A DNA stretch of 64,000 nt from Eledone cirrhosa (GCA_964016885.1 OZ024748.1:32736001-32800000), one strand, 5' to 3'. Numbered from the stretch's first letter, positions 53,798 through 63,175 are shown. Translations and numbers: made by a program. Notes: a model not told the origin generated them from the letters alone.

Positions 53798-55940
53798 AAA
53801 TTGAAACAAAATGAAAACGAAATTTCATTTCTCACTCTTAGTATGGCACTTACTTAAATGTAAGTATGCATGTATACGTACATACATATATGTATACAGA
53901 CGTACAGTAGCATGCACATATATATATATATATACACATATATATACATATGCATACAGGTACACATACATATATGCACGTATCAGTTTAGCGGCGCTAA
54001 CGTCGCTTTGTTCGTTTGTAAACAAACTGAACAGCCTGAATTTATGCCATACGGTGTTAAGGCAACCACGTCACCTTTTTGTTCAACACTGACACAGGAA
54101 CGATGTACTAGTTTCAAGCTTGTTAGCTATCATCAGCACCGTTTACCCATCTGCCAGATAGTTGAACGTTCGAAAGTATATACTTTCCTTATGAAAATAA
54201 ACGGCTGAGCAGCCTAATTTGCATATTGAGTGAGTTAAATCGGTCAGGCATACCGAAAACGATAAATTGAAACAAAATGAAAACGAAATTTCATTTCTCA
54301 CTCTTAGTATGGCACTTACTTAAATGTAAGTATGCATGTATACGTACATACATATATGTATACAGACGTACAGTAGCATGCACATATATATATATATATA
54401 CACATATATATACATATGCATACAGGTACACATACATATATGCACGTATCAGTTTAGCGGCGCTAACGTCGCTTTGTTCGTTTGTAAACAAACTGAACAG
54501 CCTGAATTTATGCCATACGGTGTTAAGGCAACCACGTCACCTTTTTGTTCAACACTGACACAGGAACGATGTACTAGTTTCAAGCTTGTTAGCTATCATC
54601 AGCACCGTTTACCCATCTGCCAGATAGTTGAACGTTCGAAAGTATATACTTTCCTTATGAAAATTAACGGCTGAGCAGCCTAATTTGCATATTGAGTGAG
54701 TTAAATCGGTCAGGCATACCGAAAACGACAAATTGAAACAAAATGAAAACGAAATTTCATTTCTCACTCTTAGTATGGCACTTACTTAAATGTAAGTATG
54801 CATGTATACGTACATACATATATGTATACAGACGTACAGTAGCATGCACATATATATATATATATACACATATATATACATATGCATACAGGTACACATA
54901 CATATATGCACGTATCAGTTTAGCGGCGCTAACGTCGCTTTGTTCGTTTGTAAACAAACTGAACAGCCTGAATTTATGCCATACGGTGTTAAGGCAACCA
55001 CGTCACCTTTTTGTTCAACACTGACACAGGAACGATGTACTAGTTTCAAGCTTGTTAGCTATCATCAGCACCGTTTACCCATCTGCCAGATAGTTGAACG
55101 TTCGAAAGTATATACTTTCCTTATGAAAATTAACGGCTGAGCAGCCTAATTTGCATATTGAGTGAGTTAAATCGGTCAGGCATACCGAAAACGATAAATT
55201 GAAACAAAATGAAAACGAAATTTCATTTCTCACTCTTAGTATGGCACTTACTTAAATGACGTGGTTGCCTTAACACCGTATGGCATAAATTCAGGCTGTT
55301 CAGTTTGTTTACAAACGAACAAAGCGACGTTAGCGCCGCTAAACTGATACGTGCATATATGTATGTGTACCTGTATGCATATGTATATATATGTGTATAT
55401 ATATATATATATGTGCATGCTACTGTACGTCTGTATACATATATGTATGTACGTATACATGCATACTTACATTTAAGTAAGTGCCATACTAAGAGTGAGA
55501 AATGAAATTTCGTTTTCATTTTGTTTCAATTTATCGTTTTCGGTATGCCTGACCGATTTAACTCACTCAATATGCAAATTAGGCTGCTCAGCCGTTAATT
55601 TTCATAAGGAAAGTATATACTTTCGAACGTTCAACTATCTGGCAGATGGGTAAACGGTGCTGATGATAGCTAACAAGCTTGAAACTAGTACATCGTTCCT
55701 GTGTCAGTGTTGAACAAAAAGGTGACGTGGTTGCCTTAACACCGTATGGCATAAATTCAGGCTGTTCAGTTTGTTTACAAACGAACAAAGCGACGTTAGC
55801 GCCGCTAAACTGATACGTGCATATATGTATGTGTACCTGTATGCATATGTATATATATGTGTATATATATATATATATGTGCATGCTACTGTACGTCTGT
55901 ATACATATATGTATGTACGTATACATGCATACTTACATTT
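53798..55940. repeat. Retrozyme-like tandem array 1: three 466-bp units (hammerhead on minus strand) plus inverted 1.4 units
   Basis: Period 466 (ORF track repeats at 53811/54277/54743); hammerheads at 54099-54143, 54565-54609, 55031-55075 (-) and 55653-55697 (+); inversion at ~55258. Confidence 0.92.
54099..54143 (-). ncRNA. Type I minimal hammerhead ribozyme, family B (representative copy)
   Basis: AACGGUG-CUGAUGA-U-AGC(UAACAA)GCU-U-GAAA-C(UA)G-UA-CAUCGUU: 7-bp stem I, 3-bp stem II, palindromic ACUAGU stem III, GUA site. Confidence 0.85.
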
Positions 55941-56480
55941 ATATATATATATATACATATATATATATATACATATATATATACATATATATATATATAT
56001 ATACATATATATATACATATATATACATATATATATATATATACATATATATATATATACATATATATATATATATACATATATATATATATACATATAT
56101 ATATATATATACATATATATATATATATACATATATATATATACACATATATATATATATATATATATATATATATACATATATATATATATATATATAT
56201 ATATATATATATATATATATATATACATATATATATATATATATACATATATACATATATATATATATATATATATACATATATCATATATATATATATA
56301 CATATATATATATATATATATATATATATATACATATCTATATACATATATATATATATATATATTAATAAGAGGAATTCCAACTTTGTCTGATTTACCC
56401 GTTTTATTTACAATCCTTTAAAATATATAATGGTATTATAATGAAATATTATGATAGAATATTAAATTCTAAGTGTTAAT

Positions 56481-56519
56481 TGAACAAGTACTTTCATGCT
56501 TTCGCAATCTTCAGGTTCA
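56481..56519 (-). ncRNA. Type I minimal hammerhead, family D (left arm)
   Basis: Exact reverse complement of 56593-56631. Confidence 0.7.
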
Positions 56520-59501: not shown

Positions 59502-61471
59502 GATTATATATTTTACATTATTTTATTTTATTTCATTTTATTTTATTTTATTTTATTTTATTTGGATTCTTCTTTGGATAACCCCCTCCCCCCTCCCCCC
59601 ATGCGCACATACACTTATTGTCAACCCCTCAAATAGATTATGATTATATTTAATCCCCCCCTCCTTTACGCTCCTTTCTATTATTTAATATAGTATATTG
59701 ACTATAATCTTATGCTCCTTTGTATCCTCCATACATTTCTTTTTTCTGTCCCTATTAGCCTACCATAATTCTGCTTAAGTCAGTTTTTTAGATATCGTTA
59801 TGTAAATGATAGTAGAAAATTTCATTCCTTTTTATATATATATTTGTAGTGAAATATTAACGTTTATAAATTTTGATTACTTAAACCATAGCTAATATTG
59901 TATTGCCTTATTAGATATTTTAAATATTTTTAATATTAATTTATCAAATAGGGTTTTCGAGTCATTTACCGGGGTTGTTTCCTAAGTTTTTACTTAACTG
60001 CATGTGAGACATAAGTATATACTTTTGTTTTTGTTTTTTTAATTTCCGGTTGATTCTATCTATTTATTTATTTATTAATACTACTGTGCATTCTATTTAC
60101 TGTCTGGCCCTTACTCACTCATCCACATATATGTCTGTTTACCAACCTTGTAATTATAAGTAATTATATATTATATTATGTTAATTATTTTATATTGTAT
60201 TTGTTATTGTACTATCGATCCTTATTACTTACCGTTGATTATATGTACCATTATGATATGTTAAATTTTATATATCATGTAAGATGTTTATATTTTTGTA
60301 CCATCATAATTTTGGGTATTGTACAATTTATATTTTTTTCTCACCTACTCTGTAACTCTATATGAATTGATTTGTTAACTTGCATGCCATTATATGTTAT
60401 AATATTATATATGTTATTATATTATTATTATAGTATTATTGTGACATCTATATTGTTTGTGTAAATTAACCGGAGATTATCTATTATATTATATTATATA
60501 GTATATAATTGTATAGTTTATTATATATTATATGTGCTACTTATAATCATATCATATTATTACTTCATGTATATTAGATATACATATTATTATTATTATT
60601 ATTTTTTTTATTCCTATCATGCTTATTTATATTTAAACTCTTAATAAGGTTTAATTTGTGCTGTTAAAGATGGATATGAGTATTGATGTATCTGTATATG
60701 TGCGTACGTGTGCGTACATATATACATATGTATATTGTACCTTTTAAATTTTATTGTAATTTTAATATTGTTACAAGTATATTATATTATATTATATAGT
60801 ATTATATATAATTCCCGCTCTATATAACCACCTTTGTTTAGCTCTCGTTTTTTTTTGCTTTGGACTATATATATTTATATATATAAATATATATATAGTT
60901 TTGCGAGGTTTTTTATATGAAATCGTGTGTCGAAACAAATATAACAATATATATATATATAAATAAATATATATATGTATATATATATATATATATATAT
61001 ATATATATATATATATATATATATATATATATATATATAAATATATATATATATATATATATATATATATATATATATATTAGAAAATGAGGTTTTTTTT
61101 ACAAATTGAAAAATAACCGAGGTGTCCTACACGAGTGAAAGTATAAAGAAAAAGAGATGAAATCGAAAATGCAACTGGAATCTTAATTTTTTTTAAATAT
61201 ATATATTTATTTGGTTCCTTTACCGGTTTCGCAGTTCTTCTGCTTTTCAAAAGTAGAGTTGAGATGGAGGGTCTGTGGTTTTATATATATATATAAATAT
61301 ATATATATATATATATATATATATATATATATATATATATATATATATATATATATATATATATATATATATATATATATATAATATATATATAAGTATA
61401 TATATATATATATATATATAAATATATATATATATATAAATATATATATATATATATATATATATATATAT

Positions 61472-63175
61472 ATACATACAGGTACACATACATATATGCA
61501 CGCATCAGTTTAGCGGACGCTTATTATAACGCCGCTTTGTTCGTTTGTAAACAAACTGAACAGCCTGAATTTATGCCATACGGTGTTAAGGCAACCACGT
61601 CACCTTTTTGTTCAACACTGACACAGGAACGATGTACTAGTTTCAAGCTTGTTAGCTATCATCAGCACCGTTTACCCATCTGCCGGATATATATATATAT
61701 ATATGCATACTACTGTACGTCTGTATACATATATGTATGTACGTATACATACATACTTACATTTAAGTAAGTGCCATACTAAGAGTGAGAAATGAAATTT
61801 CGTTTTCATTTTTTTCAACTTATCGTTTTCGGTATGCCTGACCGATTTAACTCACTCATTATGCAAATTAGGCTGCTCAGCCGTTAATTTTCATAAGGAA
61901 AGTATATACTTTCGAACATTCAACTATCTGGCAGATGGGTAAACGGTGCTGATGATAGCTAACAAGCTTGAAACTAGTACATCGTTCCTGTGTCAGTGTT
62001 GAACAAAAAGGTGACGTGGTTGCCTTAACACCGTATGGCATAAATTCAGGCTGTTCAGTTTGTTTACAAACGAACAAAGCGGCGTTATAATAAGCGTCCG
62101 CTAAACTGATGCGTGCATATATGTATGTGTACCTGTATGTATATATATATATATATATATATATATATATATATATATATATATATGCATACTACTGTAC
62201 GTCTGTATACATATATGTATGTACGTATACATACATACTTACATTTAATTAAGTGCCATACTAAGAGTGAGAAATGAAATTTCGTTTTCATTTTTTTCAA
62301 CTTATCGTTTTCGGTATGCCTGACCGATTTAACTCACTCATTATGCAAATTAGGCTGCTCAGCCGTTAATTTTCATAAGGAAAGTATATACTTTCGAACG
62401 TTCAACTATCTGGCAGATGGGTAAACGGTGCTGATGATAGCTAACAAGCTTGAAACTAGTACATCGTTCCTGTGTCAGTGTTGAACAAAAAGGTGACGTG
62501 GTTGCCTTAACACCGTATGGCATAAATTCAGGCTGTTCAGTTTGTTTACAAACGAACAAAGCGGCGTTATAATAAGCGTCCGCTAAACTGATGCGTGCAT
62601 ATATGTATGTGTACCTGTATGTGTATATATATATATATATATATATATATATATATATATGCATACTACTGTACGTCTGTATACATATATGTATGTACGT
62701 ATACATACATACTTACATTTAAGTAAGTGCCATACTAAGAGTGAGAAATGAAATTTCGTTTTCATTTTTTTCAACTTATCGTTTTCGGTATGCCTGACCG
62801 ATTTAACTCACTCATTATGCAAATTAGGCTGCTCAGCCGTTAATTTTCATAAGGAAAGTATATACTTTCGAACGTTCAACTATCTGGCAGATGGGTAAAC
62901 GGTGCTGATGATAGCTAACAAGCTTGAAACTAGTACATCGTTCCTGTGTCAGTGTTGAACAAAAAGGTGACGTGGTTGCCTTAACACCGTATGGCATAAA
63001 TTCAGGCTGTTCAGTTTGTTTACAAACGAACAAAGCGGCGTTATAATAAGCGTCCGCTAAACTGATGCGTGCATATATGTATGTGTACCTGTATGTATAT
63101 ATATATATATATATATGCATACTACTGTACGTCTGTATACATATATGTATGTACGTATACATACATACTTACATA
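61472..63175. repeat. Retrozyme-like tandem array 2: inverted partial unit, then about 3.1 units of 474-482 bp (hammerhead on plus strand)
   Basis: Hammerheads at 61628-61672 (-), 61942-61986, 62424-62468, 62898-62942 (+); unit length varies with the internal (TA)n. Confidence 0.92.

Follow-up and report, generated by a model that had tools for sequence, protein, structure and literature searches.

Non-long terminal repeat (non-LTR) retrozymes, described from mussel and many other animals (PMC7229834; published sources are cited throughout for the part of their text that was available), are an already known class of repeat, and those of coral, mussel and axolotl are built from non-coding units repeated in tandem, each with a single type I hammerhead ribozyme; these units are of low GC content, occur in thousands of copies and are predicted to form a strongly self-paired circle. 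Their mobilisation by Penelope elements was already proposed in the same work, and a review (PMC7761336) describes retrozymes as seemingly promoterless. Penelope insertions are marked by an inverted 5'-truncated copy, a tail of 30-40 bp at one end and, in Neptune/Naiad elements, (TA)n targets (PMC8557442), the tail corresponding to the stretch between two internal start sites used by the reverse transcriptase (RT) in vitro (PMC11167929). The current work concerns a family of tandem hammerhead repeats encountered in a 64,000-nt stretch of the genome of Eledone cirrhosa (GCA_964016885.1 OZ024748.1:32736001-32800000; hereafter the window), positions 53,798 to 63,175 of which had been described, in a first-pass annotation made from the sequence alone, as a candidate cephalopod retrozyme system.

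This repeat resembles the non-LTR retrozymes of PMC7229834 in the traits listed above for coral, mussel and axolotl, and its units, at 419-538 nt with an internal (TA)n tract, are slightly longer than the published ones (about 170-400 nt in these animals, 150-450 nt for the class) because of that tract. With endonuclease-bearing (EN+) Penelope elements of the Neptune type and with MRC1 of Chlamys (PMC8557442, PMC11167929) it shares 5' truncation, partial tandems, an inverted 5'-truncated copy, a tail at one end, the bias towards (TA)n and a type I hammerhead, and it differs from EN+ elements by a unit without open reading frame (ORF), by an extended rather than minimal hammerhead and by a tail of ~58 nt; MRC1-type elements resemble the 3' end of their partner, whereas the unit has no detectable homology to the Penelope pseudo-LTRs (pLTRs) tested. 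A preprint on vertebrate retrozymes (10.64898/2026.07.22.740005) comes to the same conclusion, namely that Penelope elements mobilise retrozymes, on the basis of co-occurrence and of pLTR homology in Xenopus, whereas the evidence presented here is insertion anatomy without homology; its available text holds no mollusc and no analysis of ends (0 matches for 'tail', 'octopus' and 'mollus'), and the main text of PMC7229834, as far as available, does not mention inverted arms or (TA)n targets (0 matches for 'inverted' and 'microsatellite'). No cephalopod hammerhead occurs in the available portions of PMC4209133, PMC6155905, PMC10886601 and PMC13282606 (a 2026 repeat annotation of Octopus vulgaris, with its supplement), and the literature check advised in the first-pass annotation found no cephalopod retrozyme, subscription journals, Dfam and Repbase lying outside the search, so that the family may be catalogued without its ribozyme. 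Analyses of retrozyme ends or promoters were likewise not found in the literature outside subscription journals. New here are the Penelope footprint at the insertion ends, a near-strict pairing of two end types, termed a and b, and a U6-type element in the unit.

A young and abundant hammerhead repeat

A generic hammerhead core pattern was matched 29 times in the window versus 1.82 times in shuffled sequences. The motif is present at all eleven places listed in the first-pass annotation (ten intact copies and an eleventh at 44863-44907), and the cut positions 61979, 62461 and 62935 and the unit lengths of 482, 474 and 466 nt given there are correct. Its assignment of the repeat to the non-LTR retrozymes is supported by the type I hammerhead in every tandem unit, the low GC content, the many loci and the self-paired predicted circle. 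The units do lie in tandem within arms, as claimed; each array, however, is made of two arms joined head to head (Table 1).

A genome-wide copy count, which had been proposed as a check, returned 24,001 exact-pattern matches to the 31-nt core of the family, and a 27-nt motif of the tail was matched 28,694 times, the reversed control giving 0 matches in both cases; the similarity of the two counts argues against a large subfamily with a dead core. A DNA search of the genome gave 54 matches on nine contigs (40 of 169 candidates scored). The loci studied comprised 76 loci (the first core clusters on contig C1 and the best DNA-search matches) in addition to the window, and a held-out set of 20 loci was picked by tail motif. 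Two main lineages and intermediates between them were recognised, with 1-20 units per arm and a unit GC content of 0.34; most differences in unit length stem from the variable length of the internal (TA)n tract, and the only stop-free frames are short ones running through that tract. No LTR structure was present in the mapped insertions (no search for a primer-binding site or polypurine tract was made). The repeat is a young, very abundant retrozyme.

Insertion ends carry the Penelope tail signature

The 3' ends of the insertions lie away from the ribozyme cut and are fixed at two sites. Across the 76 loci and the window, 121 3' termini were placed. Of these, 63 fall at site a, which directly follows a T run and lies ~156 nt before the next cut; site b, ~58 nt earlier, accounts for 56, and 2 lie elsewhere. 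(TA)n flanks 104 of 117 ends and would hide any target site duplications, which in non-LTR retrozymes, when present, exceed 4 bp. When arms were considered in inverted pairs (n=36), 32 combined one a with one b end, 2 were a+a, 0 were b+b and 2 had an odd end (p 6.5e-8 with a duplicated locus counted once), and all 12 pairs of the held-out loci, where the a end was the selected one, were a+b (2 of them in a duplicated cluster already sampled). A second end anchor yielded 7 extra a-type matches, of which 4 were dropped as false (2 antisense on a hairpin, 1 internal, 1 unrelated); had these 4 been kept, 30 pairs would have counted as a+b and 5 as a+a. A textbook end pair is seen in array 1, and the autonomous families of the genome that encode RT and GIY-YIG show the same arrangement in 17/17 pairs.

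The end pattern of the unit is the Penelope tail signature, and the enzyme responsible for insertion is very probably a Penelope-like RT/GIY-YIG protein. Mobilisation by a Penelope-like enzyme, as suggested in the first-pass annotation, is now directly supported by the insertion ends, that is, by the a+b pairs, the (TA)n flanks and the likeness to autonomous families; the scheme put forward there has to be changed in one respect, as where an insertion ends depends on two priming sites within the unit and not on the ribozyme cut. Weighing against this interpretation are the 2 a+a pairs, an array of 20 units with b at both ends (which fell beyond the 4.5-kb pairing limit), the 14 of 191 hammerheads that stop short of the tail region, and a tail of ~58 nt versus the 30-40 bp in print; the tails of autonomous families in this genome measure ~39-66 nt or more.

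At most priming sites of families P1-P5 (see below) and of the unit, the RNA continues with TA, TAT or TATA, which makes a pairing of 2-4 nt with the nicked (TA)n possible; the anole Penelope element is reported to prime without homology (PMC11167929). Several promoterless copies of U6 and U6atac (L188, L191, L192, L203 and L204) begin right after TA-rich or (TA)n tracts and may be retrocopies for which this same machinery, with its preference for (TA)n, is responsible.

RNA template of the insertions

The 5' ends of the arms are spread across the unit (6, 12, 13, 15, 4, 15, 10, 18, 11 and 8 in successive bins), only 2/112 being located within 10 nt of the cut, where just 1/20 core-less arms starts, and the number of hammerheads per arm declines as 78, 20, 10, 1, 1, 1 and 1. 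That the 5' ends ignore the cut site implies that the template was a circle or an uncut multimer. Since an RT that starts at either site on a linear monomer left by cleavage would stop at the cut and never copy the core, core-bearing copies require an RNA with an intact junction, and the cleaved linear monomer is ruled out as their template. The 24,001 core-bearing copies would thus derive from a ligated circle or from an uncut multimer, to which we attach about equal weight.

The two arms of an array carry the same variant, with a median of 2 differences per 125 nt versus 16.5 to other arrays (30 arrays), and the arms of several arrays cluster together in a tree; this falls short of proving a single template molecule, a point against the scheme proposed below, because the likeness across arms equals that to the nearest other array (median 2). 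At locus L222 (1083-1340 and 1651-1903, both orientations), 18 A>G versus 2 T>C changes were counted on the sense strand in 255 nt, of which 10 A>G and 0 T>C are private, and this single case looks, from its substitutions, like an RNA that had been hyper-edited from A to I and then reverse transcribed. Outside L222 there is no A>G excess (29 versus 28), which also counts against the scheme. A general A>G bias, considered from the raw counts of 470 versus 307, was rejected as confounded by subfamily differences. In the array of ~20 units with an inverted arm and b at both ends (L112:2340-10000, L252:1-2100), variants are common to alternate units, suggesting that long arrays also grow locally.

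The hammerhead ribozyme

Stem I of the ribozyme consists of 6 conserved pairs followed by an internal loop and ~10 more pairs, stem II of 4 bp (AGCU/AGCU) atop a U.U mismatch, and helix III of a single pair capped by CUAG, a palindromic loop, the cleavage triplet being GUA, a natural one for hammerheads (PMC1636495). Judged by its sequence, the ribozyme is a canonical extended type I hammerhead and not of the minimal Penelope type. Two elements of the first-pass model have accordingly been revised: the minimal stem I of 7 bp is extended, its seventh pair being absent outside the subfamily of the window, and the stem II of 3 bp (AGC/GCU) has 4 bp on the mismatch. Helix III is the same as in HHR_Amex1 of axolotl, one pair plus palindromic tetraloop, and the U.U at the base of helix II is that of HHR_Amex2, both axolotl ribozymes cleaving poorly as monomers and well as dimers (PMC7229834). 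An Rfam scan found no ribozyme at the gathering score, the best match being Hammerhead_HH9 with 18.5 bits (gathering 52, E 0.086).

An alignment of 74 distinct full-length hammerheads was prepared, 9 of 195 segments having been removed as cut off or unrelated, and pairing holds in 96.4% of its 1628 cells. Double-sided changes in stem I were found in 53 cells, whereas shuffling yields 25 and sliding the alignment no more than 6, and two stem I pairs covary (G.U / U.G / A-U and A-U / U.G). Between lineages, 2/31 columns of the core and of stems II and III vary (the free position 7 and one base of loop II) versus 102/379 columns elsewhere (p 0.006), a constancy that is inflated by the use of the core pattern to find most of the copies. 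On this evidence from variation the ribozyme appears to be under selection. The claim that variation respects structure does not hold for the copy at 44863, cited for a change from G.U to A-U, which also has U4G in its catalytic core.

Upon folding of a two-unit transcript, the double hammerhead was predicted at -181.7 kcal/mol, 16.7 kcal/mol better than two single hammerheads (-165.0) and 2.3 from the free minimum free energy (MFE) fold (-184.0), and in the monomeric circle the active fold lies 8 kcal/mol above the MFE. The hammerhead is therefore predicted, from these energies and from its likeness to the axolotl ribozymes, to be active as a dimer and disfavoured as a monomer, which agrees with the dimer dependence previously suggested. 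The predicted long stem I brings both ends of the monomer together, and circular monomers with the TA tract collapsed fold with z values of -5.0 to -8.2 and 64-69% of their bases paired in 5/5 representatives (z -9.1 with the tract kept). Several features speak against an active and selected ribozyme: the core constancy is inflated, as stated; covariation is confined to two pairs, that is, to few events inherited many times; two weak traits, the one-pair helix III and the U.U at the base of helix II, are combined in one molecule; and in free folding C3-G5 pair with stem III.

A candidate U6-type promoter

An octamer and a TATA box had been spotted in the unit before the small nuclear RNA (snRNA) genes of the genome were examined. 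Three U6 types, U6atac and RNase MRP of this genome carry TATG(C/G)(A/T)AAT(T/G)AG at -76 to -78 and TATA at -30, U1, U2 and RNase P have a different TCAGT element near -58 and a TATA-like box near -32, and 14 weaker U6 copies are without upstream element (loci compared: L163, L164, L165, L201 and L202 against L031-L034, L175-L185 and L208). On the sense strand of the unit, 120 nt before the cut, TATGCAAATTAGG scores 20.2 with a weight matrix built on just 5 sites (training sites 17.1-20.6), a score reached by 0/2284 background strand-windows; the 16.2 of subfamily C was reached by 3/2284. Among 157 copies, TATA follows at 42 nt in 148 and at 44 nt in 1, and 8 have no TATA. From these sequence matches, the unit may carry a U6-type promoter composed of the element and TATA, an assignment that we put forward tentatively, and transcription would then be predicted to start at ~62415-62420, 10-16 nt before the core.

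Set against this assignment are the small number of sites behind the matrix; the TATA spacing, which is 46-48 nt in 5/5 true U6-type genes, so that the TATA of the unit lies ~5 bp too close; and the position of the element in a predicted hairpin, a possible reason for its constancy. Conservation of the element above background was not significant (1/13 columns vary, p 0.09). A T6-T7 run is located just before site a in most lineages; such T runs terminate RNA polymerase III (Pol III) and should stop it before the next unit, a further argument against the promoter. Two other candidates were rejected, namely a promoter of the U1/U2 type (Pol II), for which GTCAGTG after the cut resembles the element, though without TATA-like box and inside stem I, and, as an indication of Pol III, the fact that no T4 run precedes site a, which is equally true of 26-55% of shuffles. 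Newt satellite 2 and schistosome SM-alpha are also hammerhead repeats with a promoter inside the unit, of the snRNA-type Pol II and Pol III kind, respectively (as cited in PMC2220036), whereas the element described here matches the gene-external kind of promoter that U6, U6atac and RNase MRP have in the same genome, and not the U1/U2 type.

Autonomous Penelope families and other features of the window

Five repeat families tied to RT/GIY-YIG ORFs were identified in the genome, three of them with the Neptune CX4CxxC linker and full frames of RT and endonuclease, and pieces of four such families lie inside or beside positions 53,798-63,175. The search for a partner by homology gave nothing clear in 28 comparisons with 7 pLTR segments (best 1/200 shuffles), which weighs against the copying in trans proposed below; among the few families sampled, site a has a weak U-rich likeness to the b end of family P4.

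Positions 56368-56805 hold an inverted pLTR pair of the Neptune-type family P3 (ORFs in L146, L147, L149 and L158), with hammerheads at 56488-56515 (-) and 56597-56624 (+) and ends b and a. A pLTR piece of family P4 (ORFs in L144 and L145) is located at 61085-61282, and in its hammerhead (61221-61250, -), which has a GUA site and a palindromic helix III, U3 and A8 replace C3 and G8. Family P2 is found at 63205-63640 and 7250-9050, with a GIY-YIG-type ORF at 7627-8325 that has the CX4CxxC linker, a tail of ~60 nt and hammerheads at 8752 (+), 7459-7486 (-) and 63419-63446 (-). A further hammerhead family, in which stem II is long and variable and helix III is made of AU pairs only, is represented at 11834-11899 (+), 18162-18226 (+), 18534-18578 (-), 40271-40326 (-) and 47533-47597 (-). 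Array 1 sits in a TA tract beside the end of a broken Penelope-like element (frames at 51425-53650, 10563-11246 and 58303-58779), whose RT and GIY-YIG frames have a differing cysteine linker (CNC...CPL..C); a 356-bp direct duplication (98%) at 58785-59501 directly follows the last of these GIY-YIG frames. A Pfam search of three Penelope fragments of the window named no family.

Elsewhere in the window, three degenerate C2H2 zinc-finger arrays with an 84-bp period occupy the minus strand (1139-2692, 18917-19851 and 40644-41909), a long open frame on the minus strand at 32237-34317 resembles LINE reverse transcriptase, and a tRNA-like sequence at 38051-38123 (Rfam 66.7 bits) may be a gene or the head of a SINE. 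Of 66 matches to a zinc-finger protein of the window, 13 bear the name Octopus, the named matches with the highest identity being among them; zinc fingers are weak markers, and an octopus-like host is on this basis a fair guess.

Table 1. Coordinates of the retrozyme arrays and of their features in the window.
Feature	Position	Strand	Remarks
Array 1, long arm	53796..55258	-	466-nt units, three complete and one partial; tailed 3' end (a) at 53796, within (TA)n
Array 1, inverted 5'-truncated arm	55257..55941	+	tailless 3' end (b) at 55941, within (TA)n
Hammerhead, array 1	54099..54143	-	
Hammerhead, array 1	54565..54609	-	
Hammerhead, array 1	55031..55075	-	
Hammerhead, array 1 inverted arm	55653..55697	+	
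Array 2, inverted short arm	61475..61689	-	one hammerhead; runs out in the TA tract of the unit itself, an end of neither type
Array 2, long arm	61687..63175	+	three hammerheads; unit lengths 482 and 474 nt; tailless 3' end (b) near 63175
Hammerhead, array 2 inverted arm	61628..61672	-	
Hammerhead, array 2 long arm	61942..61986	+	predicted cut after 61979
Extended type I hammerhead, example unit	62410..62478	+	core at 62431-62461, the cut being predicted to follow 62461; internal loop in stem I
Hammerhead, array 2 long arm	62898..62942	+	predicted cut after 62935
Internal (TA)n tract	62140..62186	+	length-variable
Tail of one unit	62245..62305	+	site b (~62245) to site a (62305); hairpin and T7 run (62291-62297) inside
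Candidate U6-type upstream element, TATGCAAATTAGG	62342..62354	+	also 61860-61872, 62816-62828, 55571-55583
Candidate U6-type upstream element, further copies	54213, 54679, 55145, 45255, 24915	-	
TATA-like box	62385..62390	+	42 nt after the element
Separate young insertion	45238..45746	.	short inverted piece and one unit; hammerhead 45400-45444 (+); end a at 45746
Older diverged insertion	44751..45183	.	both ends type a; hammerhead 44863-44907 (+) with U4G
Older insertion, ~90% alike to array 2	24482..25100	-	end of type a at 24482; hammerhead at 24802-24844; inverted piece, very short, near 25064-25100

Discussion

The family is probably a non-autonomous non-LTR retrozyme that is copied in trans by a (TA)n-targeting Penelope-like element, most likely of the Neptune type. 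In the proposed route, a tandem array would be transcribed through at least two units, perhaps from the U6-type element and TATA of each unit, a step about which we remain somewhat doubtful. Neighbouring hammerheads would then pair their palindromic ACUAGU, and the resulting double hammerhead would, judging from the folding models and from related ribozymes, likely cut out a monomer of 420-540 nt; on the same grounds the ends of this monomer, held by the long stem I, would probably be ligated to a circle, which we propose would be stable because the ribozyme is disfavoured in it. The Penelope enzyme would nick both (TA)n strands and start a cDNA from each, using two sites inside the RNA that lie ~58 nt from one another and far from the cut. 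The RT would read on past the junction over varying lengths, so that arms of 1 to 7 or more tandem units result. The two 5'-truncated cDNAs would be joined head to head, the anatomy that is observed, and rare long arrays would extend by local duplication, as suggested by one 20-unit array. Two reports argue against cleavage as a part of this route: 8/9 predicted frog dimers did not cleave in vitro (10.64898/2026.07.22.740005), and the anole Penelope element is inserted without need for cleavage, uncut RNA being its main substrate (PMC11167929).

The anole result favours an alternative that retains the Penelope insertion as described and takes the uncut read-through multimer as template, the hammerhead then trimming slowly or acting as a folded protein-binding element and circles being a by-product. 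This is unlikely without being negligible: it accommodates all end and 5'-truncation data equally well, long arrays of 20 units could be the sources and the ribozyme is predicted to be weak, yet efficient dimer cleavage would destroy multimeric templates while the core is kept across lineages, the progeny could not outgrow the source array, source junctions would be copied although inversion junctions differ among the mapped loci, and the related mussel, coral and axolotl repeats accumulate circles. It is also improbable that the hammerhead is vestigial and that the repeat, as a Penelope parasite similar to a SINE, retains no more than a compact RNA fold. The weakness of helices II and III, the competing inactive fold and the inactivity of most frog dimers (10.64898/2026.07.22.740005) would be expected in that case, but the core is invariant between lineages ~14% apart with only free positions varying, stem I changes are compensatory, GUA is a natural cleavage triplet (PMC1636495) and the axolotl ribozymes, which share these weak traits, are cleaved in dimeric form (PMC7229834).

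Finally, the unit could be the orphaned pLTR of an unsampled autonomous Penelope family, its copies 5'-truncated and its tandems formed by local duplication, the satellite route being that of 10.64898/2026.07.22.740005; we consider this highly improbable. The ends of the unit are the same as those of pLTR pieces, frog retrozymes are homologous to pLTRs (10.64898/2026.07.22.740005), variants common to alternate units of the 20-unit array are a sign of local amplification and few GIY-YIG loci were sampled (50 fetched of 150 scored, out of 10,597 candidates). Nevertheless, 115/116 internal tails lead into another unit and not into an ORF, no unit adjoins a Penelope ORF without an intervening TA tract in 98 sources, 0/20 long-ORF elements have the unit as their repeat, the hammerhead of the unit is extended, unlike the pLTR ribozymes of the genome, and arms with at least 2 units are common (34/112), even in copies near 100% alike.

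Copying of the retrozyme in trans by a Penelope-like element, as preferred here, may be extended to a unit that is a self-contained circular mini-element equipped with a dimer-only hammerhead, a two-site priming tail and a Pol III promoter of the U6 type that is not part of the first transcript it drives, although we judge this extension unlikely. Read-through past the T run would put the promoter into the monomer, the circle would be copied by rolling RT from both nicked strands, and the tandem product would restore the promoter before every unit. Were this the case, a gene-external promoter could spread by retrotransposition, and Penelope enzymes would copy circular RNA without homology to their own ends.

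This family bears on the question of which enzyme, template and promoter animal retrozymes use in spreading. It would occupy roughly 10 Mb of the genome, as estimated from copy number and unit length, and it provides a single-base enzyme footprint in thousands of young copies, with two RNA sites named and a candidate promoter offered. In nearly every pair of Penelope ends the tail is present on one and absent from the other, which constrains how the two strands are primed. The promoter elements of the small-RNA genes of this genome could, moreover, guide the expression of guide RNAs in cephalopods.

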